From: Synechococcus sp. A15-28
GTDB lineage: Bacteria > Cyanobacteriota > Cyanobacteriia > PCC-6307 > Cyanobiaceae
Assembly (NCBI RefSeq): GCF_014280175.1
Contig: NZ_CP047931.1
Coordinates: forward strand, 600,001-632,000
Reading direction: 5' to 3'
DNA: 32,000 bases
In this document: piece after piece, positions 9,291 to 22,027 of the stretch
Numbering within the stretch: position 1 is the stretch's first letter
Layout: each line of letters begins with the position of its first letter
Position numbers and translations under genes: made by a program
Notes under the pieces: model-generated
The model's input: only the letters and a program-made list of their open reading frames with translations
The model's database searches: none
What the model was told of the DNA's origin: nothing

Positions 9291-10388
9291 GTGCCCGATC
9301 CCAGGGATCTGCAGCTCAGCAGTTACGACTACCGGCTGCCGCAGGAGCGGATCGCCCAGGCTCCGGCCGAACCACGCCACAGCGCTCGGCTTCTGATGGT
9401 GCCCCAGGCGACCCAGGGGCTCGATGAAGCCAGGCACGGGACGGTCTGGGATCTGCTGGAGGAATTGCAGCCTGGCGATCTTCTGGTGGTGAACGACACC
9501 CGGGTGCTCAAGGCACGGTTGAAGGTGCGTCGCTCCGGTGGTGGGCTGTCGGAGCTGTTGGTGCTGGAGCCCCGCGGGGAGGGGCGTTGGCTTTGCCTGG
9601 CACGACCGGCGAAGCGCATGCGGCCCGGCGATGTGCTCAGCATCGATGGCACCTCGATCAGCCTGACGGTGCTGGATGAGGATGCCGCCAGTGGGGGGCG
9701 TTTGGTCCAGTTCCCGACGGACTGCCGAGATGCGGAGACAATCGAGAGGCTGCTGAATCAGTGGGGCGAGGTTCCACTCCCCCCTTACATCGACCGGCAC
9801 GACCCCGACGATGCTGATCGCTATCAGACTCGCTACGCCGACCGACCTGGCGCGGTTGCGGCACCAACGGCGGGTTTGCATTTCAGCGATGAACTGCTGG
9901 CCGGTCTCCAGCGCAAGGGAGTGGACCTGGCACGCATCACTCTTCACGTGGGACTCGGTACGTTCCGCCCCGTGGAGACGGAAGATCTCACCCAACTGGA
10001 ACTGCACAGCGAGTGGATCGAGGTCAGTGCGGCGGTGGTGGAGGCCATCCAGCGGTGTCCGGGCCGGGTCATTGCCGTCGGCACCACCTGTGTGCGGGCT
10101 CTGGAGGGGGCGGCTCAACAGAACGGTGGAGTTCTGCAACCGCTCACGGGGCCCGTCAACCTCGTGATTCAGCCGGGCTATCGCTTTCGGGTGGTGCAGG
10201 GTCTGGTCACTAACTTCCACTTACCGAAGAGTTCGTTGTTGCTGTTGGTAAGCGCCTTGATTGGACGGGAAAAGTTACTGCGTTTGTATGACGAAGCAAT
10301 TCAAAAGCAGTATCGATTTTTTTCTTATGGCGATGCGATGTGGATTCCACGGGAAGCGATTCTGCAATCAGCTCAGCTGATTCCATAA
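9291..10388 (+). CDS. queA: S-adenosylmethionine:tRNA ribosyltransferase-isomerase QueA
   Basis: 365 aa. ..[12 protein letters not shown].., ..TAGLHF.., ..[16 protein letters not shown].. and ..[12 protein letters not shown] are QueA signatures. The last ~180 nt are AT-rich, unlike the rest of the gene. Confidence 0.9.
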
Positions 10389-11023
10389 AATGGGTCCAAC
10401 CAGGAAATTTTTAGGGGGTCAATGTGGAGAAAGGCTGGCTGAATCATCAGTCTTTTTCCGGTAACGGCAGCTCGAATAGGTTCGCTTGTTTCCATCAATG
10501 ATTTGGCTGTGATGATGGCATGTTGGATGCAAGCGTTGGCATAGGACTGCTTCTCGTCAATGTTGATGCCATGACTGGTCAGTCCGAGCTGGATATCACG
10601 AACGAGCTCTGTTAAGGAAGCTGAGAAAACCTGATTTTTCAAATATGCAGCCTTTACTGCGCCGCAACCTTGATGACTCATCACAAGAAGGACGCTAACA
10701 TTGAGGTCAAGCACAGCATATTCAATCGAACCAGCTGACCCAAACGTGTTGGTATTTCCAGCATTGCGGATTACGAAAAGATCTCCAAAGCCTGCATCGA
10801 AGATCACTTCAACAGGAACTCTTGAATCAGAGCAAGCTAATAATGCAACTCGTGGGTGCTGCCCTCCGGCGAGTTGGTGCTCGCGTGCTTTTGTTGCGTG
10901 GGGGTGATGCGACGTGTTGCTCAAAAAGCGATCAAACCCTCGTTTGAGCTCTTCCACAACCTCGTTTGGATCAAAATACCCTTGGTTTGAGTCAACGTAA
11001 TAAGAGTCAATCATAAATTTCAC
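10373..11023 (-). CDS. Beta-class carbonic anhydrase
   Basis: 216 aa with the two zinc-ligand motifs of beta-CAs, ..[12 protein letters not shown].. (CxDxR) and ..MSHQGCGAV.. (HxxC). No N-terminal hydrophobic signal is visible. Its 3' end overlaps the queA 3' end by 16 nt, convergently. Confidence 0.85.
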
Positions 11024-11144
11024 AAGTTAACTTCCTCATTATTGCTATATAGATTAATGAAAGACGCTTTGGTCAGCAAATGCTAACTTTTTTCGGGATG
11101 TTTCTTGACTCGAGCCTCATAATTGAGGAAAGGTCACAACGTTA

Positions 11145-12557
11145 ATGCTTGCCGTTATTGTTTCACACTCGCTTTTGGCTTTGAAGGAGCCAGGTGCAGA
11201 AATTGAGGCTGCAACGGGGATGCTAGAGAAGCTCCCTTCGTTGCACTTCTCTTTTCAAGGGGCACTCCTATCACTCTCTCTGCTGTTGCTGGTCAGCATA
11301 CTGTCAGAAAAATTAGGCGTAAAGCTTGGAATACCTGGATCAATCTTCTTGTTTTTTGCTGGTCTCTTTTTTCATGTCTCAGGCTTTAGCTTTGAATCTT
11401 TTCCGTTAGAACAAGTTCATGTTGTATCGCTTTGTATATTGTTATTTTTCAGCGGGCTTTCCTTCGATCGGAAGCTTTTAAAAGAAAATAAAGTTCTATC
11501 TAATTCAATAAGTTTGGGTATTTTCGGAACCTTGCTTAGCATGGCTTTATGGCTGTTTTATTTAATCGTAGGTTTTGGTTTTTTTCAAGGTTTTTTTGGT
11601 TATCTAGAGGGTGTAAAGCAAGAGCTTGTCGAATTGCTCGTTGTAACTATTGTTTTTTCAATCGCAGTCCAGGATTGGAATTCATTTATGTTCGTATCTA
11701 AGAGAATCGTAGATTTTCGTTCAATTCTATCCAATATTTTTAGAGTTGAAACATCTATCTCAGCTTCGATCTCCGTAGCTGTTGCCGAGATTCTTGTTCT
11801 TGTTTGGCTCGCTCTGCATCCTGAGTATCAGCTCCTTAACGGATGGCAATTGTTCTCATCGATCTCCCAAGGAATATTCATTGGATCAGTATCAGGAATT
11901 GTTCTCGGTTACATTTTGATGCTGACAATTCGGTATGTCATTACGTCTAAACCTCAACTGGTTTTAGGTGCTGTTGCATTCACCCTGATCGGTTACGTAA
12001 TTTCTTTTTCAATTACTCACCAGGGTGGGTATCTCTGTGCGTTAGTGATGGGCATTGTTACCTCTTTGACCTATCGTAAAAGCTCAACTGAGGAAGAGAT
12101 AGAATTTCTAGCAGAAGAATTGGAGACACTCAATATTGCTTCTGAGGCAATCCTCTTCTTTGCGATTGGCCTTGGACTCAATGCAACTTCCTTCTTTGTT
12201 CACTTGCCAGTGGCGATCTATGTCTGGCTTGGAATCATCATCATCAGGCCAATTACAGTAAATCTCTTTTTCAAGGGCTCTCCTGCCATCGAGACTGAAG
12301 AACGTCAGCTCCTATCGATATGGAGTCCAAAAGGAGCCATTTCAATGGCCTTGGTGGTAACTGCACCAGAGCTGCTGGAGGGAACTTTTGGTATGGAGAT
12401 TGCTGAAATTTTTCCTGAAAGCGCTTCTAGCTTCTCGGCGGATGTGGTTTGCGGTGCTGTTTTGTTCTCGATGATTGTTAAATCCTTGGCGATTCCAAAA
12501 ATTCATTCCCAATTGATTCCCACTCAAAATACTATTACCACCAATCAAGAGGCTTGA
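11145..12557 (+). CDS. CPA-type (NhaP/CPA1-like) cation:proton antiporter-fold membrane protein, atypical
   Basis: 470 aa and highly hydrophobic, with about 11-13 TM segments. ..LLFFSGLSFD.. and ..WSPKGAISMALVV.. resemble the CPA1 consensus. GAGG lies at 11125-11128, upstream of the ATG. Confidence 0.6.
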   Translation: MLAVIVSHSLLALKEPGAEIEAATGMLEKLPSLHFSFQGALLSLSLLLLVSILSEKLGVKLGIPGSIFLFFAGLFFHVSGFSFESFPLEQVHVVSLCILLFFSGLSFDRKLLKENKVLSNSISLGIFGTLLSMALWLFYLIVGFGFFQGFFGYLEGVKQELVELLVVTIVFSIAVQDWNSFMFVSKRIVDFRSILSNIFRVETSISASISVAVAEILVLVWLALHPEYQLLNGWQLFSSISQGIFIGSVSGIVLGYILMLTIRYVITSKPQLVLGAVAFTLIGYVISFSITHQGGYLCALVMGIVTSLTYRKSSTEEEIEFLAEELETLNIASEAILFFAIGLGLNATSFFVHLPVAIYVWLGIIIIRPITVNLFFKGSPAIETEERQLLSIWSPKGAISMALVVTAPELLEGTFGMEIAEIFPESASSFSADVVCGAVLFSMIVKSLAIPKIHSQLIPTQNTITTNQEA

Positions 12558-12560
12558 GTT

Positions 12561-13223
12561 ATGTTGAAAAAAAAGCTGACAGATCGGTACCGGCTCTCAC
12601 GGGCAGTGTTGGTGGGCACAGTTATAACTCTTTTGTTCATGCCCATCTTGGCAACGAATGAAGCGACGACGATTGCAGTCGCATCTGCGCTTGCAGTGGA
12701 TTTTTGTATTTTTATCAAGCAATCCTGGCTCATTGACGTCAATAACACAAGGGATATCTTCCAGCAATTCGATGCGAAAGAATCATCTGTTGCAGAAAGA
12801 ACAATAGCGCTTGTATTTCTGAGTGTGGGCATATTGAGTTTCTGCATTGCGGAATTACATTCAAAGCATGATGTTCTGCCGAACTCAATTCATGTTTTTA
12901 TAAGTTTTATAGCACTATTTTTGACCTGGCTGCAGTTGCACAACGGATTTGCGCTTTACTATGCAAAAAAATACTTTGATATGAATCCGGTTCGACTTGA
13001 TGATCCTGAGGGGCAACTGGGATTTATATTTGAAGGAACAGAGCCAACATTTAGCGATTTTTTATATATTTCTTATTCGATAGGTCTTACTTATTCAATG
13101 ACTGACTGCGGCATCAAGGATTCTGCGGTTAGGCGAATTGTTATCATTCACTGCCTCTCTTCATTTCTCTACGCATCAACAGTACTGTCGATCATATTCT
13201 CATTGGCGACGCAAGTGAGTTGA
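12561..13223 (+). CDS. DUF1345-like integral membrane protein
   Basis: 220 aa. The C-terminal half ..HNGFALYYAKKYF..FSDFLYISYSIGLTYSMTDCGIKDSAVRRIVIIHCLSSFLY.. matches my recollection of the DUF1345 consensus. It starts 3 nt after the antiporter stop. Confidence 0.55.
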   Translation: MLKKKLTDRYRLSRAVLVGTVITLLFMPILATNEATTIAVASALAVDFCIFIKQSWLIDVNNTRDIFQQFDAKESSVAERTIALVFLSVGILSFCIAELHSKHDVLPNSIHVFISFIALFLTWLQLHNGFALYYAKKYFDMNPVRLDDPEGQLGFIFEGTEPTFSDFLYISYSIGLTYSMTDCGIKDSAVRRIVIIHCLSSFLYASTVLSIIFSLATQVS

Positions 13224-13358
13224 TCCGCAAAAGGGTTATCCATAACCTTTAGGGGTATGCATATGTGTGCGTTCCCTATTATTTTGTCGGGCGGCAGCGT
13301 TGGATACTTTCCAAATCCCGTATCTTCTCTACAATCAACTTGTGAACAGAATCAATCC

Positions 13359-13661
13359 ATGTTCGAACTCGAGTATCTCCTAGCTTTCGGCCTGGGTGCA
13401 GGTCTCGTTGCTCTTACCCCCGTTGTAGCTGCTGCTGCTGGAAAGGAAAGCGCTATCACCAAGACTGTTTCTGGCGCCGGACGTGGCTTGACAAAACAAG
13501 GTCTGAAAGCTGGTCTCTTTGTAGGAGGAAAGGTATCTGGACTGTTCACTGGCGTTAAGTCGGGTTTGAATGAGGTGGGTGAGAGCTTCGGCGACATTCT
13601 TGCTGAAGCGAAAGCAGACATGGCTACACCGAAAACTAAGACTTCATCACAAAAGGCTTAA
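13359..13661 (+). CDS. Small membrane-anchored glycine-zipper protein (DUF5132-like), paralog 1
   Basis: The start at the internal ATG is chosen because both paralogs then begin MFELE. It has a hydrophobic N-segment, a Lys/Gly period-4 region GLTKQGLKAGLFVGGKVSGLFTGVKSGL and an acidic tail. Confidence 0.6.
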   Translation: MFELEYLLAFGLGAGLVALTPVVAAAAGKESAITKTVSGAGRGLTKQGLKAGLFVGGKVSGLFTGVKSGLNEVGESFGDILAEAKADMATPKTKTSSQKA

Positions 13662-13664
13662 AGC

Positions 13665-14102
13665 TTGCCAATTACAGTTAAACATCGTGTATTTGGTCGT
13701 GTGAGATTTATTTGGGAGAAGAAATATACCAGTCACGAGATAAAGCTTATGGAATTATCGTTCTTGTATCATTTTCCTGAGTGTCGTTTTCGTTCTGCTT
13801 CAGGTAATACAGGTTGTGTGGTTCTTTTTGATGAAAGTAGTGATCAGCTTTTGTGCCATCAAGTGACTGATTGGATTCAGAATTTCATAGACTTTGCTGA
13901 GTGCCAAGGTCCGTTACTACCACCATCCAAAAGGGATATTCTGATCGACAAGGTTAAAGGTTGGACTGCTCAGTCCATGATTGTTATGGCTATTCTCGGA
14001 TGGATATTACCAATTCTTCCCGGTACTCCATTTTTCTTTGTGGCATGGTGGCTGGGTTGGAGGCCGTCGTCCACAAATCAGTCAGTTGTCGCCGAACCAT
14101 AA
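13665..14102 (+). CDS. Cysteine-free basic HMA-like (CoBaHMA/HMA2-like) domain protein with a C-terminal LPxxPG membrane hairpin
   Basis: TTG start 3 nt after the preceding stop. ITVKHRVFGRVRF ... ECRFRSASGNTGCVVLFDES follows the ferredoxin-like HMA pattern without CxxC. The C-terminus ..ILGWILPILPGTPFFFVAWWLGW.. resembles the DUF454/YbaN and PGPGW hairpins. Confidence 0.6.
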   Translation: MPITVKHRVFGRVRFIWEKKYTSHEIKLMELSFLYHFPECRFRSASGNTGCVVLFDESSDQLLCHQVTDWIQNFIDFAECQGPLLPPSKRDILIDKVKGWTAQSMIVMAILGWILPILPGTPFFFVAWWLGWRPSSTNQSVVAEP

Positions 14103-15170
14103 ACGCAGCCAGCTTTGAGTCATTTGTGCCCTATTGCATTGCATTGCTTCCAATTTTGCGGGCAATTCGATGCTTCTGCAGTATCCATTGTAGATCAAGT
14201 TGATGGTTGAATTGATCTGTTGAATATTCATATTATCTTTCTTCACCCCTGGTAGAAATATTTTCATGCAATGACTCTCTGTATTCCATTCTTCAATGCT
14301 TAAAGACTTATTCTTGTCTTTTAATGCGTTTGCCACGAGATCTGATTCGGGGACTGTGATCGAGCTGTTAAACGTTGTTGGTCCGTTTCGGCATTCATTT
14401 TCGATTTTGATATTGGATGTATTACTTGCGTCTTCGACAATCAGTAGATGCGGTATTGCACGGTGCATGCCTGCAACGCTTAATCGAGTTAGCAGCTGTT
14501 CCGGTTTGTAGTTTTTGCCATCAAGAATTAATGTGAAATGATGATTGCTCCGACCCGAGATCGTCTGTTGTAGGAGATGTAAACGACCTTTCCATGTTTC
14601 GTTGAGACGTAACTGTTGTGATGATGGTAAGCGTAAGCGCAGTAATTTTTCGACCGTTGAAAGTGTTTGACGCGTTGTGTCCCACCAGTTAAGCAAAGGC
14701 TCTAGCAATTGGTCGATCAAGGCTGGACCCTTTTGTGCCATTCCAAGTATTTTTAAAGCATGCAATGGCGTTGGGAGGATTACGATTAAAAGTGTACTTT
14801 TTGACGCACTGTCTAGTATTTCTGACAAGAAGATCAATCTCGTTAAGTCTTCGATCCCTGGAAGTTGCGGAAGCTCGATAGATTGTTTCCCTGCAATGTC
14901 GAGCAATTGCCACCAATCTTTGGCATGTGGATTGAGCTGTTCCCAAAGTCGAGCCAGGCTACAAATATAACTGAAATTTTCTACGATAAAATTCTTCTTG
15001 GCTATGAAATCTGATGTGTCTAAATCAATCTCTCCTGATAGATTAATCAATCTTGTGTCAGCATTTTCCTGCTGAGTATGTAGGAGCCCTTGCAACCATT
15101 GGTGTAGCGCTGAATACCGGTCTGCGCTTACCAAGAGAATCAAGGCACTGATTTCGTCTTCGAATGCCAT
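14082..15170 (-). CDS. ArsA/Get3-like protein lacking the P-loop, with an HSP20/alpha-crystallin-like C-terminal domain
   Basis: 362 aa. ..ILLVSADRYSAL.. aligns by eye to ArsA ..LLVSTDPAHSL.., and ..LIVILPTPLHALKIL.. to switch II ..DTAPTGHTLRLL.. No GKGGVGKT is present. The tail ..MKIFLPGVKKDNMNIQQINSTINLIYNGYCRSIELP.. resembles the ArsA_HSP20 domain. Confidence 0.6.
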   Translation of the reverse strand: MAFEDEISALILLVSADRYSALHQWLQGLLHTQQENADTRLINLSGEIDLDTSDFIAKKNFIVENFSYICSLARLWEQLNPHAKDWWQLLDIAGKQSIELPQLPGIEDLTRLIFLSEILDSASKSTLLIVILPTPLHALKILGMAQKGPALIDQLLEPLLNWWDTTRQTLSTVEKLLRLRLPSSQQLRLNETWKGRLHLLQQTISGRSNHHFTLILDGKNYKPEQLLTRLSVAGMHRAIPHLLIVEDASNTSNIKIENECRNGPTTFNSSITVPESDLVANALKDKNKSLSIEEWNTESHCMKIFLPGVKKDNMNIQQINSTINLIYNGYCRSIELPAKLEAMQCNRAQMTQSWLRLWFGDN

Positions 15171-15235
15171 TGTATCGGGAATGTCTTATTGGATTTCGGG
15201 ATTTTCGGGTAATATCTCCAAAATTCCATTACACC
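15171..15235. promoter_or_regulatory. Divergent promoter/operator region with tandem TTTCGGG repeats
   Basis: A 65-nt spacer lies between divergent starts. ATCGGG sits at 15174-15179, ATTTCGGG at 15193-15200, ATTTTCGGG at 15201-15209 and a TAATAT -10-like hexamer at 15210-15215. The 9-mer TTTCGGGAT recurs at 11091-11099. Confidence 0.3.
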
Positions 15236-15577
15236 ATGTTTGAACTGGAAACACTTGCTGCTTTCGGAGCAGGTGCTGCCTTGATGGCGTTAGCACCAGT
15301 TGTTCGAAAAATGGGCAATGAAGAGCTTGGAGACTCCATGGGGAAGGCAGGTCGCACGATGGCCAAAAGTGGAGTCAAGGTAGGTCTCGTTGCGGCAGAC
15401 GTTGCCGGAAAAGTTGCCAACGGTGTGACGAAGAACGTAGCTGAAGTCGCTGAATCGTTTGTGGACTTGGTTCAAGAAGCTAAGTCTGAGCGCGTTGAAC
15501 CAACAGATATCGACGCGGAACAGCCACCTACTGATGCATCCCGATCTCAGGTCATCACAGAAGTAACTGTCGAATAA
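15236..15577 (+). CDS. Small membrane-anchored glycine-zipper protein (DUF5132-like), paralog 2
   Basis: Begins MFELETLAAFGAGAALMALAPVV, parallel to paralog 1. Small-xxx-small periodicity GVKVGLVAADVAGKVANGV, a conserved ..VAESFVDLVQEAKSE.. and an acidic tail. Confidence 0.6.
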   Translation: MFELETLAAFGAGAALMALAPVVRKMGNEELGDSMGKAGRTMAKSGVKVGLVAADVAGKVANGVTKNVAEVAESFVDLVQEAKSERVEPTDIDAEQPPTDASRSQVITEVTVE

Positions 15578-15622
15578 GTCTGAATTCCATTCCAAATTTA
15601 TAATCTCTCTCCTACAAACATC

Positions 15623-18157
15623 ATGGCCACATCATTTCAGAACAGTTCAGGTTTTGGGGTCGTTGATGGAGGTGCTTCAGCACGAACATCTCGAGATCCT
15701 GCACTGCCACGATTCATTGATCGCATTCTTCATGCATCGTCTCGAAGACTTCGCTTCAGTGTGGAAACTGATTTCAAAGATCCAGATAACTTCACGCGAC
15801 ATATATCAACGCTTTCGTCAGTAGAGCAGGTTCGTTTTAATAGCTGGGCCTCTTGTTACATTGTAATTTTCAAGACTGGATATAAAATTGACGCTCTGCA
15901 ATGGCTAAGTTCACTACCACGGCGATCGCGTGAAATCCCTATTGTTCCAGAAGATTCGCTGACTGATACCGCCACTTCTACAAGCCTTCAGTCTGCTGAG
16001 GAAGAAGAGGAAAAATTTGTTCCAACGCGCATTATTCTCCCAGTTTGTTCTCTTGGTCTGGCCATAGCTGCTGGTCCTCTGGCTCTTCCTCCACTCGCCG
16101 TTGGAGTTTTTATCATTGGCGCAGCGCATCTGAGTTTCAAAAGAGCTTGGGAGGGTCTGAAAAAAGAGCGCAAAATTAATGTTGATTTTCTCGATGCCTT
16201 AGCTGTTTTGCTTCACAGCTTGGAGGGCTTTCTTTTGGGGCCAGCCATGATGATCACCATGATTGAGGGTGGTGAAGCTGTACGAGATGCTACTCAGCGT
16301 ATTGCTCACTCATCAAACACTGATCTTGTTTCCAGCCTTCAATCTGATGTGCGTCTGCTCACAGAAGATGGCGAGAAGATTGTTTCGAGTTTTGACCTTA
16401 GCCCTGGTGATCGTGTTTCGTTCCTGCCAGGAGACAAAATACCGATCGATGGTGTTATTGAGTCTGGTGAAGTTTCCCTCGATGTTGTGAAGCTGACGGG
16501 TGAATCAGTTCCGAGGATGTCGGGTCCCGGAGATGAGATTTTGGCCGGCTTTATTGTTTTGGAAGGCCACATTATTGTTACAACCTCTGCTGTTGGTCAT
16601 GACACGCGCGTCGGGCAGATCACTAAAATGATCGAGTCGGCGCCTGTTTTTGACACGCGTGTCGGAAATTTTGCCGCAAATATCGCCAATCGGTTTGTCA
16701 TCCCGACATTGGTTTTGGCGGGTGTCTCCCTGATGCTCAGTGCAGGCAATATTGCTCAGGCAGCATCTCTGCTCATGTTCGATCTTGGAACGGGGCTGCG
16801 TGTTTCAGTCCCAACTGCGATCATGGCTGCACTGACCAGAGCTGGAAGTCAAGGCCTGCTGATTCGTAGTGGACGTGCTTTGGAGCAGTTGGTTGAAGTT
16901 GATGTTGTCGTTTTTGATAAAACCGGTACGTTGACGGAAGGCCACCCGTCAATTGTTGAGTTTACTGTTTTTGACCAAAATGGAGCCCCCGATGAGTTTG
17001 TTGATGCTGATAAGTTTAAACACCTTTTGCAACTTTCCACATCACTTGAACAGGGGTTGAACCACCCGATCGCCAAGGCGATTCGTGATTTTGCTGAAGA
17101 GCAAGACGTCGACGTGATCGATTGCGAAAGCTGGGATTACAGGGTCGGTCGAGGTGTCGTCGCCACTGTTAATGGTGAGACGGTTCTTCTCGGAAACTTA
17201 AAACTTCTTCGGGAAGAGGGTGTCGAGATCTGGACAGTCGACTCCAAGCCTGAGCTGGACGTTGCTACCCCCATTTATCTTGCAGTTGATGGTCTCTTGG
17301 CCGGTATTCACTACGCCCTTGATCGTGTCAGACCAGATACGTCAGCCATGATCGCTGAATTGCATAACCGGGGTATTGAAGCTCATATGTTGACCGGTGA
17401 CATTTCCTCTGTCGCCCATGCTGTCGCTGCCGATATCGGCTTACAGCCTCATGAAGTTCATTCAGATGCCTTACCTGATCAAAAGGCAGAGTTGGTTCAA
17501 GAGTTCACTGCCGCAGGGAAGAAAGTTGTTTTTGTGGGTGATGGCATCAATGATTCAGCAGCCCTTGCCTATGCTGATGTCTCAGTATCCTTCGCCTCAG
17601 GCAGTGATTTAGCTCGCGAAACGGCTGATATTGTTCTCACGAATGATCGGGTCTCTGATCTGATTGTTGCCCAAGATTTAGCACGTCATACTTTTGCTTT
17701 GGTGAAACAGAACATTGGTATTGTCGGGGTTCCAAACTTATCGGCACTTCTGATCGGTACGTTCCTGCCAGTCAATCCCATCGCGGCTGTTTTCCTTAAC
17801 AATGGTTCCTGTCTTGTGGCAGCTGGCAATGCGATTCGGGCTCTTGGTTTCAAGGCCAAACCGCTACCTGAAATCGAAGCATCAGCTTCTACAGTGAATG
17901 TAGAAACAGTGCTCCCTGATACCGCTGCAGCTCAGGCCACGACAGAAGAAACTACCGACGAGAACGCTTCCTTACCCATCACTCATCTTGATTTGGCAGC
18001 TCTTTCACGTCGTGTTGGACTCAGTTATCAGAAGATCTCAGCCCGTCGTCGACGCAATGATTTTGCTGATTGGATATCGACTCATGATCCTGAAGGTCAT
18101 GGTTGGGAGTACAGCATTGATCTCAAAACATTCTCCATGGTTCCTGCGGTTTCATGA
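15623..18157 (+). CDS. P-type ATPase, P1B-like architecture, atypical (no CPx membrane motif, no CxxC N-domain)
   Basis: 844 aa with TGES (aa 292-295), FDKTGTLT (D432, nt 16916-16918), NHPIAKAI, MLTGD and GDGINDSAAL. The position of the P1B CPC reads LGT (nt 16784-16792). The N-terminal domain is HMA-like, with ..ILHASSRRLRFSV... Confidence 0.9.
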   Translation: MATSFQNSSGFGVVDGGASARTSRDPALPRFIDRILHASSRRLRFSVETDFKDPDNFTRHISTLSSVEQVRFNSWASCYIVIFKTGYKIDALQWLSSLPRRSREIPIVPEDSLTDTATSTSLQSAEEEEEKFVPTRIILPVCSLGLAIAAGPLALPPLAVGVFIIGAAHLSFKRAWEGLKKERKINVDFLDALAVLLHSLEGFLLGPAMMITMIEGGEAVRDATQRIAHSSNTDLVSSLQSDVRLLTEDGEKIVSSFDLSPGDRVSFLPGDKIPIDGVIESGEVSLDVVKLTGESVPRMSGPGDEILAGFIVLEGHIIVTTSAVGHDTRVGQITKMIESAPVFDTRVGNFAANIANRFVIPTLVLAGVSLMLSAGNIAQAASLLMFDLGTGLRVSVPTAIMAALTRAGSQGLLIRSGRALEQLVEVDVVVFDKTGTLTEGHPSIVEFTVFDQNGAPDEFVDADKFKHLLQLSTSLEQGLNHPIAKAIRDFAEEQDVDVIDCESWDYRVGRGVVATVNGETVLLGNLKLLREEGVEIWTVDSKPELDVATPIYLAVDGLLAGIHYALDRVRPDTSAMIAELHNRGIEAHMLTGDISSVAHAVAADIGLQPHEVHSDALPDQKAELVQEFTAAGKKVVFVGDGINDSAALAYADVSVSFASGSDLARETADIVLTNDRVSDLIVAQDLARHTFALVKQNIGIVGVPNLSALLIGTFLPVNPIAAVFLNNGSCLVAAGNAIRALGFKAKPLPEIEASASTVNVETVLPDTAAAQATTEETTDENASLPITHLDLAALSRRVGLSYQKISARRRRNDFADWISTHDPEGHGWEYSIDLKTFSMVPAVS

Positions 18158-18678
18158 CACCAACGCTTTGTTTGCGCCATCGCACCGATAGTCGCTGGAG
18201 GTTTGTGGTGACCCACGCATCCCAGTGTGATTGGGCTCGTCTGCAACGCGATCTTGTCGATGTTTTCCCCAACAGCAGCTGGTCTGTTCGAATCAATCAA
18301 AGGATTGGCTCGATTGTGGTTTGCCGCTTGGCTTCTGCACCACGCCTTCGTCAGGATCCGTTGTCATTGGTATTTGGGCGTGTTGCAAAGCAACTGAACC
18401 TTCAGGGATTTTCCGTCCCTGAAACCCCTTTAATCCCAACGGAAATCGTTGATCGGACCTCTCAGAAGCGGCTGAATGCTCTTCATTCGGTATTTCGTGG
18501 TATTGCCAATGCCGCTTCAGTGTCTTTATCCATATCTACTTTGTTATTGTCTCTGGCCCTCTTTATTATTGGTTTGCTGGGCATCCTTCTGCCATTTTCT
18601 CCAGGGATCTGGTTGTTGGTTGTAGCGACTGCTCTTTTTGACCTAGCCCTTTCTTTTCGTCGTCCTTTCGTCGTCTAA
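18154..18678 (+). CDS. Cysteine-free basic HMA-like (CoBaHMA/HMA2-like) domain protein with a C-terminal LPxxPG membrane hairpin, second copy
   Basis: ATGA start/stop overlap with the ATPase (18154-18157). LCLRHRTDSRWRFVV ... SVRINQRIGSIVVCR follows the HMA-like pattern. C-terminus ..LFIIGLLGILLPFSPGIWLLVVATALF.. Confidence 0.6.
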   Translation: MTPTLCLRHRTDSRWRFVVTHASQCDWARLQRDLVDVFPNSSWSVRINQRIGSIVVCRLASAPRLRQDPLSLVFGRVAKQLNLQGFSVPETPLIPTEIVDRTSQKRLNALHSVFRGIANAASVSLSISTLLLSLALFIIGLLGILLPFSPGIWLLVVATALFDLALSFRRPFVV

Positions 18679-18683
18679 ATCTC

Positions 18684-20780
18684 GTGACAATGCTTGCTGC
18701 GGCTTCACCATCCCCCTGGATCATCCGCAGCGAGCTCGCCGATCGAATTCGTGTCTTCCATCCAGGTTTGTCCTCCTCGCCTGGATTGCGCCAACATTGT
18801 GCGTCTTTGCTGCACCGGACGCATTGGCTGTTGAGTCACCGTATCAATGCTGTTTCTTCAACAGTAGTTATCCGATTCCACCCTCGCCAACGAGGCGATA
18901 TCACGCTCTTACTCGACCGTTGTTTCATTGACCCGGTAGCTGATTCGGGGCTTGAAAAGGCCCTTTCAGCAGAATCGCGCATCACAGACATCACGCACAG
19001 CTCCGCTTTTCAGAAGGCCCTTCGCACTGGCGCGATTTGCGGTTCAATTCTCTTCATTGATCCGATCGTCGCTGTTCCCCCGTTGGGTCTTGGCTTGGTG
19101 GCCACCATGCTGAGCTGGCCATTATTACGTGAATTATTTGAACAAGTGAACGAGCGCCTACAAGGAGAGGCTGATCCGCGACAGTTACTACCCCCTGCAT
19201 CGGTGGAGGTGGCACTGTCCGCTACGTTGATTGGATCAGGCTTGGCGCGTGAATCTCTTGTTGAAGGACTTCTAGGCAGTTCCACTTCGGCGCTTCAGTC
19301 GATGAGTGAGAACACCCAAGGATCAAGTTCGGAATTTTTTGCGTTTCTGGAGCGTCTGAAGACGTCAGTGATGCTGAGATGCATCGATATTCAAACAGAG
19401 GAAAGTACCTTGCTTCCTATTGGTGATCTTCAAGTTGGTCAACGCTATCGCTTGATGGACGATGATCATGTTTATCTGTCTTCCCGAGTTGTCCAAGGGG
19501 AGCTGGTTGTTACGAACAGCCTCAGCGATGGTTCCTCCCTGCCATTTCGTGTGGTGCCGGGTGATCACCTCGCCTTTGGGGCTTTTGTGCTGTCCGGAGA
19601 TGGTATTTGTGAAGTGGTTCAGTCGTTTTCTGAGGTCAGTCTCTTTAAGATCGAAGACACTCTTCTCGAGGAAGATGGATCAAGTGATTTCCAAAAGCGT
19701 TTGTCTTACTTGTACGATCTTCTGCTTCCTCCCGTACAGCTTGGATTTGGTGTTTGGTCGTTGCTGAATGGTCTAACAGAACGAGCCATTGGTTTGCTTT
19801 CATTTAACCCAGCTGAAGATTCTGAACGTTCCAAATTGTCTTCTTCAGAGTCAGCTTTGGTTGATATGGCACTCAATAATGTGCACATTTCAGATTCGCG
19901 CGTTTTTGAGACATTAATGGATGTTAGTCACATCATGATCAGCATCGATGCTTTGCGCCATCTTGGTACCTATTCTTGTCAACAAACCTTGTTAAATGGT
20001 GCTTCTGCACTTGATTGTGATTTACTTCAGATTCTTTGGGCTATTGTTTCTGATTTTGGTGCTGATCCATCTGTTGTCTTATGGGGAATTTTGAGTGATG
20101 TCCAAGAGAAACATCCTGCTCTTCAGTCTCTTGAAGTCAATGTCGGTGAATCGGATCAAGGTCTTTATCGCGTTGTCCTTGAAGGTCAGCCTGTCGTTTT
20201 AATTCGTTTCACGGAGAAGGATGGGGCAATTCATGCATCTTTCTCTACTGAAGAAGCGGATCTTGGTGTTATTACGATTACTTGGCGACCATCTCAAGAG
20301 TTTGAAATGATGTCGTCTCAGCTTTGTAAGCTTGGCATTTCAGTCTCTACGGTTGGTGCTCATTGTGGGCGCACTAAGGAAGCAGAAGACCGTAAGTCCA
20401 GATTGCTAGAGCTTCGTAATCAAGGATGTAAGGTGGCTTATCTTGGAGACGTTATTGACGATATTGCTGCAATGGCAGCAGCTGATATAGCTATAGGTCT
20501 TGCAGAGGATGAACTGGGCTTTATTTCTAAGACCGTTTGCGACATTGTACTTGGAGGCGATATTTTATGGTTGGCTCGTCTTTTTGTTTTGAGCCGAAAT
20601 TTTGTAGAAGCCAATCGTTTTAACACGAATTTGATTGTTGGCTCTTCTGTCCTGCTTGCAGCAGCCTCTCTTGTTGCCACCTTCTCGCCATTGCAAACGA
20701 TATTGCTATTTAACTCTGCTCCAATCATCGCTGAGATCAATACACTCAGGTCTCTCAACGGTTCAAGTTCCAGGCTATAG
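18684..20780 (+). CDS. Degenerate P-type ATPase paralog (probable pseudo-enzyme) with an N-terminal HMA-like domain
   Basis: 698 aa and collinear with P1B ATPases, but TGES becomes SDGS (aa 281-284), DKTGTLT becomes IDALRHLGT (D422, nt 19947-19949) and GDGINDxxAL becomes GDVIDDIAAM. TM segments are retained at both ends. Confidence 0.7.
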   Translation: MTMLAAASPSPWIIRSELADRIRVFHPGLSSSPGLRQHCASLLHRTHWLLSHRINAVSSTVVIRFHPRQRGDITLLLDRCFIDPVADSGLEKALSAESRITDITHSSAFQKALRTGAICGSILFIDPIVAVPPLGLGLVATMLSWPLLRELFEQVNERLQGEADPRQLLPPASVEVALSATLIGSGLARESLVEGLLGSSTSALQSMSENTQGSSSEFFAFLERLKTSVMLRCIDIQTEESTLLPIGDLQVGQRYRLMDDDHVYLSSRVVQGELVVTNSLSDGSSLPFRVVPGDHLAFGAFVLSGDGICEVVQSFSEVSLFKIEDTLLEEDGSSDFQKRLSYLYDLLLPPVQLGFGVWSLLNGLTERAIGLLSFNPAEDSERSKLSSSESALVDMALNNVHISDSRVFETLMDVSHIMISIDALRHLGTYSCQQTLLNGASALDCDLLQILWAIVSDFGADPSVVLWGILSDVQEKHPALQSLEVNVGESDQGLYRVVLEGQPVVLIRFTEKDGAIHASFSTEEADLGVITITWRPSQEFEMMSSQLCKLGISVSTVGAHCGRTKEAEDRKSRLLELRNQGCKVAYLGDVIDDIAAMAAADIAIGLAEDELGFISKTVCDIVLGGDILWLARLFVLSRNFVEANRFNTNLIVGSSVLLAAASLVATFSPLQTILLFNSAPIIAEINTLRSLNGSSSRL

Positions 20781-20815
20781 GGGTTGATTGTTAATTGATA
20801 TCTACAAATTCGAAT

Positions 20816-21421
20816 TCAGTTAACAAGTATCTTGACTCCGATGGCGATAAACAATGCCCCGCTTATGTACGACAGTCGTTTTTGACATAATCGATTTTTT
20901 AAACATTTTCCAGAGTAAACTGCCGTAATGGCTAAAAGAACGTTTGCGGCGACTGCTCCGGAGAAAATACTTTCAGCAGATATATTTGGACCTGCTGCTA
21001 AGGCAAGGAGTGCAAGTTGTGTGCGATCCCCGAATTCGGCTAAAAATGTTGTTGTGAAGGAGTTGCGTATGACGGCGTTGGCTGCCATCTTTGGTGCTGG
21101 TAATTGGAATTGGCTTGTATCGCATTCATCTTTGGCGACGTCAATCTTTGCTTCCAATCGTCTTGCTTCAATAATTGCGTTTGTGCCAAAGAGAAGGAAC
21201 GCAATACCCGAGACAATCTGAATGGTGTCGATGGATACGATCGATCTCATCCATACCCCAGCAGTGATCCAAAGTCCTGCCCCTATTGTGAGGGCTGAAA
21301 CGCTTCCAGTGAAAACCCAACGTGCTTTATGTCTTGCTGCCAGCAGAAGGGTAGTAATGAATGACTTATCTCCAACGCCTGCGATTGCGACAGTGGCGAA
21401 AGCAGTTGTGAACCCTGCCAC
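20816..21421 (-). CDS. UPF0016 / GDT1 / TMEM165 (Mnx-type) Ca2+/Mn2+:H+ exchanger family protein
   Basis: 201 aa in a two-repeat architecture. The second repeat has the canonical ExGD(K/R)(T/S) motif (..LAEFGDRTQLA..). The first repeat reads ..IAGVGDKSFIT.. GTG start. Confidence 0.75.
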   Translation of the reverse strand: MAGFTTAFATVAIAGVGDKSFITTLLLAARHKARWVFTGSVSALTIGAGLWITAGVWMRSIVSIDTIQIVSGIAFLLFGTNAIIEARRLEAKIDVAKDECDTSQFQLPAPKMAANAVIRNSFTTTFLAEFGDRTQLALLALAAGPNISAESIFSGAVAANVLLAITAVYSGKCLKNRLCQKRLSYISGALFIAIGVKILVN

Positions 21422-21499
21422 GATCTTTAAAAACTTTACAGAAACCCTATCGGAAAAGTCTCATGCCCGTTGTTTCCGTCAGTACATGTGGATATGGCT

Positions 21500-22027
21500 T
21501 CAGTGATTTGTGGGTTTCTTGATCAGCCAAGCTGTGCGCTGTCCGGCTCGATGGATCCGTTCAAACTCGAGGCCCATTCTGCGAAATCCAAGTTGACCAC
21601 TTGATAGTTGTACGGTCTGGGGCAAGCGCTTCACCTCGAGGAGCGAACAAATCTCGTGGCTAGAGAGTTCGATTTTTGTTGTTTTGAGCAAATGGAGAAG
21701 CTCAATTTTTTCACGCAGTAAACGTAGTTTGGAATACTTTCTGACGTCGTCTTGGAAAGGTTGCTCTGTATTTGTCTCGGTTGTTACTAGTTCATGATGG
21801 CTGCTGTTGGAGTCCACGGTGACGACTTCAGCTACCAGGGGGGCCTTCGGATTGTCCCGTCCGAGGTGGTCGTAGATAAGACCCGTTTCCTCCTGACGGA
21901 CCAAGGTGCGCATGCCTCGTCGAATTGGCTCAATTCCGAGTTCGCGAATGATGAGAAGCAGTTCAACGCGTGATATCCCTAGATCCGCCTCCAGGCTGCC
22001 AAGGCTGACTGCTTGCTGAGAGCTCAT
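21500..22027 (-). CDS. Hypothetical protein with an N-terminal helix-turn-helix-like segment (possible regulator)
   Basis: 175-aa ORF of intermediate G+C. ..LGSLEADLGISRVELLLIIRELGIEPI.. looks like an HTH. No family recognised. Confidence 0.45.
   Translation of the reverse strand: MSSQQAVSLGSLEADLGISRVELLLIIRELGIEPIRRGMRTLVRQEETGLIYDHLGRDNPKAPLVAEVVTVDSNSSHHELVTTETNTEQPFQDDVRKYSKLRLLREKIELLHLLKTTKIELSSHEICSLLEVKRLPQTVQLSSGQLGFRRMGLEFERIHRAGQRTAWLIKKPTNH

Follow-up and report, generated by a model that had tools for sequence, protein, structure and literature searches.

The locus described here raises the question of why a marine picocyanobacterium keeps, close to an active P-type ATPase, a second gene of the same fold whose catalytic motifs are gone. 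It lies in a 32,000-nucleotide (nt) window of the Synechococcus sp. A15-28 genome (NZ_CP047931.1, positions 600,001 to 632,000), and the gene in question, which we call the pseudo-pump, occupies positions 18684–20780 of that window. An initial annotation made from the sequence of the window had described it as a degenerate paralog of a P1B-type pump. Our analysis established that purifying selection maintains a family of P1B-fold pseudoenzymes that is nearly always encoded with a live pump, and the pseudo-pump belongs to this family. Its features are listed below, with the transmembrane (TM) helices named MA, MB and M1 to M6 and the actuator, phosphorylation and nucleotide-binding domains named A, P and N.

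18684–20780, plus strand: pseudo-P1B-ATPase open reading frame (ORF), 698 amino acids (aa) from GTG at 18684; the likely real start is ATG at 18690
18708–18938, plus strand: N-terminal CoBaHMA-like (HMA_2-like, arginine-rich or 'R-rich') domain, aa 9–85 (sub-threshold HMA_2 match, conservation)
19329–19679, plus strand: A domain, aa 216–332 (Pfam, hhalign)
19527–19538, plus strand: degenerate TGES, D282-G283-S284-S285 (hhalign)
19803–19811, plus strand: M4 signature F374-N375-P376 (hhalign, family alignment)
19941–19955, plus strand: former phosphorylation site S420-I-D422-A-L, aligned to D-K-T-G-T (hhalign)
20445–20462, plus strand: G588-D-V-I-D-D593, remnant of GDGIND (BLASTP, hhalign)
20568–20759, plus strand: M5/M6 helices with conserved polar residues N647, P669, Q671, N/D677, A683, E684 and N686 (model, alignment, hhalign)

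The ORF is read without interruption across 18684–20780 on the plus strand, and the ATG at 18690, two codons past the GTG, fits the 696-aa homologs. Alignment of the family profile of the pseudo-pump with that of the neighbouring pump (hhalign) gave 617 collinear columns from the N-terminal domain through M6 (probability 98.6, E = 7e-16), which bears out the initial claim of collinearity with a P1B ATPase. Direct comparison of the two proteins by BLASTP recovered 32% identity (E = 2e-8) over aa 569–691, about the last 130 residues, a stretch that comprises the C-terminal half of the P domain and M5–M6. The Pfam E1-E2_ATPase model matched just over its cutoff (E = 5.9e-7), a sequence search of solved structures matched only a C-terminal piece of the P domain, and NCBIfam holds no dedicated model for the pseudo-pump or for the small proteins encoded around it. 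The AlphaFold2 model (mean predicted local distance difference test score, pLDDT, of 69) had ZntA as its best Foldseek match (4umw, E = 7e-23) and also matched CopA, ATP7B and CadA (E = 1e-20 to 1e-23). Profile alignment and Foldseek both gave the P1B domain order and fold, with eight TM helices and A, P and N domains. The pseudo-pump shares with ZntA, CopA and CadA this fold and the order of HMA-superfamily N-terminal domain, MA/MB, M1–M2, A, M3–M4, P/N and M5–M6; unlike them, it has lost all catalytic motifs, carries FNP rather than CPC or SPC in M4, and is not a pump.

A homolog search that took in 5.8 billion proteins returned 35 clusters at 41–98% identity, all of about 690–726 aa. When 1.84 billion representatives were searched with the family profile, the scores fell into two well-separated sets, full-length family members at E ≤ 1e-87 and ordinary P1B pumps from about 1e-22. 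The dead family is one old lineage confined to picocyanobacteria, and its named carriers include CC9605, CC9616, A15-24, MIT S1220, RS9909, WH 8101 and Vulcanococcus. Three groups were distinguished. Group A is marine, contains the pseudo-pump of A15-28 and reads S-I-[DN]-A-L at the former phosphorylation site. Group B, with S-R-S-C-L at this site, is drawn mainly from metagenomes and falls together with the loci from freshwater (Vulcanococcus and related metagenome-assembled genomes, MAGs). Group C is an extra paralog with [AST]-E-x-x at the site, and its named carriers so far are RS9909 and WH 8101 only. The M4 signature F-[ND]-P-x-x-D-[WS] is common to all three groups.

In a neighbour-joining tree with 200 bootstraps, groups A to C formed one clade (100%) on a long branch, and the sister relationship between the pseudo-ATPases and the neighbouring pump family received 6.5% bootstrap support in this distance tree, whose long branches make deeper placement unreliable. 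An origin as a recent tandem duplicate of the neighbouring pump is not supported by these values. The tree points to what may have been a single old loss of catalysis rather than a recent duplication. Of the paralogy first proposed, the description as a degenerate P1B-ATPase paralog therefore stands, and a recent copying of the neighbour was not shown.

The catalytic signatures are eroded, as the initial annotation had stated. No string resembling DKTGT, TGES or TGD was found anywhere in the protein or in the rest of its family, so the degenerate reading stands against the possibility of an intact DKTGT elsewhere. Two replacements had been misplaced. The catalytic aspartate was thought to be kept as D422; in the hhalign alignment the catalytic D432 of the pump falls opposite S420, which also stands at the end of a predicted beta-strand, the expected place of the nucleophile. 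D422, two positions further on, pairs with the first threonine of DKTGT and is variable; about 8 of 23 homologs carry Asn there. Groups A and B have an invariant S420, and group C has A, S or T at this position. Similarly, TGES had been read as SDGS; hhalign pairs it with D282-G283-S284-S285, which puts S284 in place of the glutamate, and S284 is invariant in the 23-sequence marine (group A) alignment. Because the nucleophilic Asp is replaced by Ser, no aspartyl-phosphate intermediate would be possible, and because the TGES Glu is replaced by Ser, neither would catalysis of dephosphorylation. The TGD motif of the P domain is gone, as is the HP signature of the N domain, whose position is held by A460-D461. 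GDGIND has become GDVIDD, as claimed; the remnant reads G588-D/N-V-I-x-D593 in the family, with G588 and D593 at least 90% conserved and classed as invariant. F374-N375-P376 in M4 lies opposite F386-D387-L388 of the pump, where classical P1B pumps carry CPC. The F and P are at least 90% conserved in the family, and the (C/S/T)P(C/H) metal motif is absent from M4 of the pseudo-pump. These replacements support the prediction that the pseudo-pump cannot run the aspartyl-phosphate cycle.

The N-terminus of the pseudo-pump is CoBaHMA-like. It matched Pfam HMA_2 (PF19991) at E = 0.0076 and 16.6 bits, under the cutoff of 30; other cyanobacterial degenerate ATPases pass this cutoff (P0137, P0088 and a 522-aa Gloeothece protein described below). 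A beta-beta-alpha-beta-alpha unit was modelled at aa 13–80 (block-mean pLDDT 65–82), and W12, R21, R23, W48, R53 and N55 are at least 90% conserved across the three pseudo-ATPase groups. Basic residues on the first beta-strands, as in CoBaHMA, are thus kept, with R21, R23 and R53 at 90% or more in 39 sequences. The CoBaHMA domain has a strictly conserved histidine in strand beta0 (PMC8890360). The pseudo-pump lacks this histidine ('VVHxxPGRxR'); most of group A has Arg or Lys (R15) in its place, and the invariant residue of this stretch is W12.

From genome and metagenome collections, 34 related loci were recovered. All 30 full-length copies of the pseudo-pump, that of the window included, have intact ORFs at identities of 27–98%. 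The pairwise ratio of nonsynonymous to synonymous substitution rates (dN/dS; Nei-Gojobori method, NG86, pairs with unsaturated dS) was 0.12–0.26 for the pseudo-pump and 0.04–0.12 for the active pump in the same locus pairs, the pseudo-pump evolving about twice as fast. By domain, constraint was strongest in the TM helices (0.11–0.13; M5/M6 0.13), the CoBaHMA-like domain (0.125) and the P core (0.12–0.15), and the A (0.23) and N (0.31) domains were the least constrained. Across 39 sequences from the three groups, 40 positions are at least 90% conserved, including R21, R23, R53, F374, P376, S420, R570, G588, D593, D620, N647, P669, E684. Intact copies and a dN/dS well below 1 in every pair and domain rule out pseudogene decay. 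The initial view that the ORF is kept by selection is therefore upheld, and the frameshifts or dN/dS near 1 that it had named as signs of decay were not seen among the homologs.

The gene had been placed directly behind the active pump. In fact, a 174-aa gene intervenes:

15623–18157, plus strand: active CoBaHMA-type P1B-like ATPase, 844 aa (TIGR01525, intact motifs)
18154–18678, plus strand: protein of 174 aa, R-rich/CoBaHMA-like at the N-terminus and with a hydrophobic hairpin at the C-terminus, between the pump and the pseudo-pump

The pump matched TIGR01525 at E = 5.7e-133 and keeps DKTGT, TGES, TGD and GDGIND. Its M4 reads MFDLGTGLRVSVPTA, has no Cys or His, and matches none of the M4 motifs of P1B-1 to P1B-7. 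The invariant TM residues of the pump (D387, N697, N705, N726, N727, S729 and N736) likewise include no Cys or His, and the invariant Asp and Asn residues of M4–M6 suggest that its substrate may be a hard cation. The pseudo-pump and the pump have in common the R-rich/CoBaHMA-like N-terminus and an Asp or Asn in M4 (FDLG in the pump, FNP in the pseudo-pump); they differ in that the pseudo-pump is non-catalytic and falls in a separate, long-branched monophyletic lineage. A C-terminal extension of the pump of about 100 aa (aa ~745–844) is conserved, with the consensus 'LSKRLGLSHQxITARRxRxDF..W..HDP'. On one marine metagenome contig (L019, 4042–6527), the pump is found by tblastn in three pieces in different frames, with the downstream pseudo-ATPase intact; this could reflect sequencing error or real decay of the pump.

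The stop codon of the pump overlaps the start of the 174-aa gene (ATGA), and the gap from the stop of the latter to the start of the pseudo-pump is 5–11 nt. Judging from this spacing, the genes of the pump, the hairpin protein and the pseudo-pump appear to share a single, closely packed transcription unit. Across the cluster, promoter-like and terminator-like matches were no commoner than in shuffled sequence. The order of pump, ~175-aa protein and pseudo-pump recurs in marine and freshwater picocyanobacterial loci. Distant pump homologs (57–60% identity) are followed by a gene of about 180 aa and then by one of about 718 aa without a Pfam match.

These genes are part of a larger island of 12 genes at about 10.37–22.03 kb (10373–22027), with a GC content of 45.8% compared with 64.4% for the genome. 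The island is inserted between queA and cysK, the same site in all marine loci recovered, and its composition suggests horizontal acquisition or a long-lived compositional island. This CoBaHMA/DUF5132/Get3d-like island, absent from the initial annotation, is the context that matters most for the pseudo-pump. Its remaining genes are given below in order; the pump, the R-rich hairpin gene and the pseudo-pump lie between the second DUF5132-like gene and the GDT1/UPF0016 gene.

10373–11023, minus strand: beta-carbonic anhydrase (Pro_CA), the first island gene (Pfam)
11145–12557, plus strand: Na+/H+ (CPA-type) exchanger (family profile match)
12561–13223, plus strand: DUF1345 membrane protein (Pfam)
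13359–13661, plus strand: DUF5132 small membrane protein with GxxxG; real start at M35, 'MFELEYLLAFGLGAG'
13665–14102, plus strand: 145-aa protein with a CoBaHMA-like N-terminus ('VKHRVFGRVRF') and a DUF454-type C-terminal hairpin (DUF454 E = 1.3e-5, under the Pfam cutoff)
14082–15170, minus strand: protein of the Get3d/ArsA fold, lacking Walker A and carrying an HSP20-like domain at its C-terminus (model, Foldseek)
15236–15577, plus strand: paralog of the DUF5132 protein; real start at M25, 'MFELETLAAFGAGAA'
20816–21421, minus strand: GDT1/UPF0016 divalent cation/H+ antiporter (Pfam)
21500–22027, minus strand: conserved 175-aa protein, the last island gene (no Pfam or NCBIfam match)

The island order is syntenic across every multi-gene locus recovered, and the 175-aa protein closes the island in every locus at 42–99% identity. 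A second DUF1345 gene replaces the GDT1/UPF0016 exchanger in the freshwater loci. The protein encoded at 13359–13661 matched the DUF5132 profile at E = 1.5e-5 and 25.4 bits (cutoff 25). The mechanical ORF starts of the two DUF5132-like genes, at 13257 and 15164, are too long, as homologs align only from M35 ('MFELEYLLAFG', nt 13359) and M25 ('MFELETLAAFG', nt 15236), and the upstream extension of the second is broken by stops in other loci. Some near-identical copies of island genes (L001; P0330, P0404) bear the MAG labels 'Deltaproteobacteria bacterium' or 'Rhodopirellula sp.'. Misbinning of Synechococcus contigs is the probable cause, since L001 has the cysK of the window and 99% identity to it.

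The Get3d-like protein is degenerate too. Its AlphaFold2 model (pLDDT 79) had as best Foldseek matches Get3d of Arabidopsis thaliana (8elf) and All4481 of Nostoc (8egk/3igf), at E = 4e-16. Searched by sequence against solved structures, the protein alone gave no match, and its family profile met All4481 over the HSP20-like domain only. At the place of the Walker A GKGGVGKT, S-[AS]-D-[RL] (mostly SADRY) was found in 32 of 32 clusters with an N-terminus (37 found). The protein is a second degenerate NTPase of the island, and the adjacent hairpin-anchored CoBaHMA proteins are its plausible clients.

Parts of the island resemble two known gene sets. In the fez clusters, FezB is a P1B-6 ATPase with an R-rich motif, FezC combines an R-rich/HMA-like part with two TM helices, FezA carries GxxxG, and larger clusters have a second ATPase, FezH, which is not reported to be catalytically dead (bioRxiv 10.1101/2020.01.10.902569). 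Like fez, the island has two ATPase-family genes, small membrane proteins of the GxxxG kind (GLGAG and GAGAA) and R-rich motifs on four proteins (RRLRF in the pump, DRIRV in the pseudo-pump, GRVRF and SRWRF in the hairpin proteins). Membership in fez/P1B-6 was nevertheless rejected, as the pump has MFDLGTG in M4 and LNNGS in M6, where D[Y/F]SCA and HNxxT are required. Also unlike fez, the host is an oxygenic phototroph and not an anaerobe, the cluster has no iron-related genes, and the island includes carbonic anhydrase and the Na+/H+ and GDT1 exchangers.

The second set comes from cyanobacteria forming intracellular amorphous calcium carbonate (iACC). In Microcystis that form iACC, genes for two DUF5132 proteins, a CoBaHMA-DUF454 protein and a Ca2+/H+ exchanger lie near ccyA and are co-expressed with it, and UPF0016 and NhaP transporters are further candidates in the calcyanin work (PMC8890360; bioRxiv 10.1101/2024.07.07.602159). 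The island likewise has two DUF5132 proteins, a CoBaHMA-DUF454 hairpin protein and UPF0016/GDT1 and Na+/H+ antiporters. Among marine strains, RS9917 is to our knowledge the only iACC former and is described as clade VIII; two carriers of the island, RS9909 and WH 8101, presumably belong to clade VIII as well. According to Doré et al., clade VIII and subcluster 5.2 have a P-type ATPase gene that is specific to them.

How, then, might a dead ATPase be useful? We consider the chance somewhat better than even that the pseudo-pump is a pseudoenzyme acting as a non-catalytic partner of the adjacent pump, in a membrane assembly built by the island. Constraint keeps its eight-helix membrane domain, with polar and acidic residues at the usual ion-site positions of M4–M6, together with the basic CoBaHMA-like N-terminal domain and the P-domain core. 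The pseudo-pump could then serve as a scaffold, stabiliser, regulator and/or passive cation-binding module of the pump, in a specialised membrane assembly to which the island's DUF5132, CoBaHMA-DUF454 and Get3d-like proteins would also belong. The presence of carbonic anhydrase and of Na+/H+ and GDT1 exchangers, together with the Asp/Asn lining of the pump's site, suggests that the cargo would be a hard divalent cation (Ca2+, Mn2+, Mg2+ or Fe2+), coupled with pH or carbonate handling. For a physical complex of the pseudo-pump with the pump, such as the hetero-oligomer proposed in the initial annotation, the observations that argue are the operon-like packing and the near-universal synteny.

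A parallel case supports the partner reading. Outside picocyanobacteria, plasmid NC_014533.1 of Gloeothece verrucosa PCC 7822 encodes an active relative of the pump and, three genes downstream of it, a 522-aa 'HMA2 domain-containing protein' (L039, 12816–14384); this gene is preceded by those for DUF1345, DUF5132 and a hypothetical protein of 40 aa. By BLASTP the 522-aa protein is a mini degenerate P1B ATPase with CoBaHMA, TM helices and the C-terminal part of the P domain, and without the A domain, the N domain and DKTGT. Other degenerate relatives from the profile search include P0084/P0141 (D to A, 'FAKTGTLT'), P0088, P0100, P0124, P0137 and P0148. Small partners of such pumps are described in mycobacteria, where PacL (DUF1490), a single-TM protein of 'effluxosomes', is co-expressed with R-rich P1B pumps and needed for pump stability and localisation. 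The PacL scaffolds show that such pumps can rely on small membrane proteins expressed along with them. PacL is analogous to the DUF5132 proteins of the island and to the scaffold role proposed here, and it is not derived from an ATPase.

Several observations weigh against this proposal. In MIT S1220 (L002, 10004–12154) and GCA_047285265.1 (L038, 10001–12151) the gene is solitary, with no pump or island gene within 10 kb, and sits between DUF481 and LOG-family genes in a low-GC patch (40% compared with 49–53% in the flanks). The dN/dS between these two copies is 0.12, still constrained, so the gene need not lie next to the pump and perhaps need not be its partner. The MA–M2 region of the pseudo-pump model is of low confidence (pLDDT < 50), the pump is without the P1B-6 motifs of FezB, and the ion and any compartment are read from gene content alone. 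Moreover, no calcyanin-like ORF was found in the window by a crude glycine-zipper scan and, for its upstream half only, by ORF-by-ORF reading; the sole match of the GxxxGxxxG-rich scan, which used no reference calcyanin, was an alternative frame of an acyl-CoA synthetase gene.

A bolder version of the partner reading, which we put forward tentatively and as rather unlikely, is that the island builds a ferrosome-like or iACC-like membrane-bounded cation store (e.g., of Ca, Mn or Mg carbonate). The dead ATPase would be a structural or gating subunit for ion binding and release, and the Get3d-like protein would insert the hairpin CoBaHMA proteins.

The main rival is that the pseudo-pump works on its own as an ATP-independent device, such as a passive cation channel, a uniporter or an ion sensor, without binding the pump. 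The strongest constraint does fall on the TM helices, and polar or acidic residues occupy the canonical ion sites (N/D375, N647, Q671, N/D677, E684, N686). The solitary, selection-maintained copies in two genomes are in keeping with independence, and diversified roles are suggested by Synechococcus sp. WH 8101 (L037, CP035914.1, 671041–693167), where a single cluster holds an active pump along with two distinct pseudo-ATPases, a 720-aa protein in the usual place and, beside the carbonic anhydrase, a group C paralog of 708 aa (P0318, whose one Pfam match is E1-E2_ATPase). However, the gene follows the pump in all multi-gene loci recovered, the MIT S1220 type excepted, and a bare channel would have no need of the cytoplasmic A, P and N domains, which are under purifying selection (0.12–0.31). 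We also know of no P-type ATPase that acts naturally as a channel. Autonomous function is in our judgement improbable.

An enzyme with non-canonical chemistry, using Ser420 as nucleophile or acting on another substrate, is very unlikely. The invariance of S420 at the nucleophile position in groups A and B and the conservation of G588, D593 and D620 in the P domain would fit such an enzyme; however, the Lys, Thr and Gly of DKTGT, TGD, the Glu of TGES and the HP of the N domain are all missing, group C has A, S or T at the nucleophile position, and the N domain is the least constrained part of the protein. No HAD-fold enzyme with a serine nucleophile is known to us. Finally, the gene might be a pseudogene in decay, or its long ORF spurious, within an island gained by horizontal transfer. 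This reading, for which the low GC content and the doubled evolutionary rate might speak, is already refuted by the intact copies, the low dN/dS and the 40 conserved positions, and has next to no probability.

The initial annotation knew of no described pair of active and dead P1B ATPases in one operon, and the literature we covered, which did not extend to the CoBaHMA paper of Gaschignard et al. 2024 (10.1002/prot.26668), likewise contained no description of such a pair or of the pseudo-pump family. Nor did it describe a stand-alone, selection-maintained, catalytically dead family of P-type ATPases. The nearest approach to such a pair is a remark that the N-terminal halves of CtpH and CtpI of Mycobacterium tuberculosis look like degenerate P-type ATPases (PMC13460109), and P4-ATPase-like domains are described in alveolate guanylate cyclases. 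The nearest precedents found for dead P-type ATPases are thus fused domains. Like them, the pseudo-pump has a P-type fold without full catalysis and is paired with an active partner; unlike these modules, which are of the P2 or P4 type and part of one polypeptide, it is a separate gene of the P1B type with its own conserved family.

P-type ATPases are among the best-studied transporters, and the dead family spans globally abundant phototrophs, including the cultured strains CC9605, CC9616, A15-24 and WH 8101. The live pump that accompanies it is P1B-like and of an unclassified type. In this family, nature has in effect run the experiment of leaving the P-type fold without ATP turnover. The phenomenon is broader than this family, as degenerate CoBaHMA-ATPases are annotated as 'HMA2 domain-containing protein' or 'hypothetical protein' in other cyanobacteria. 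The parts of the ~12-gene island overlap two known bacterial gene sets for membrane-bounded mineral stores, those of ferrosomes and of calcyanin/iACC, and if the island does build such a store, this would bear on the handling of trace metals, calcium and carbonate by marine picocyanobacteria. The pseudo-pump represents a new kind of non-enzymatic pump relative that probably works within an ion-handling membrane system.

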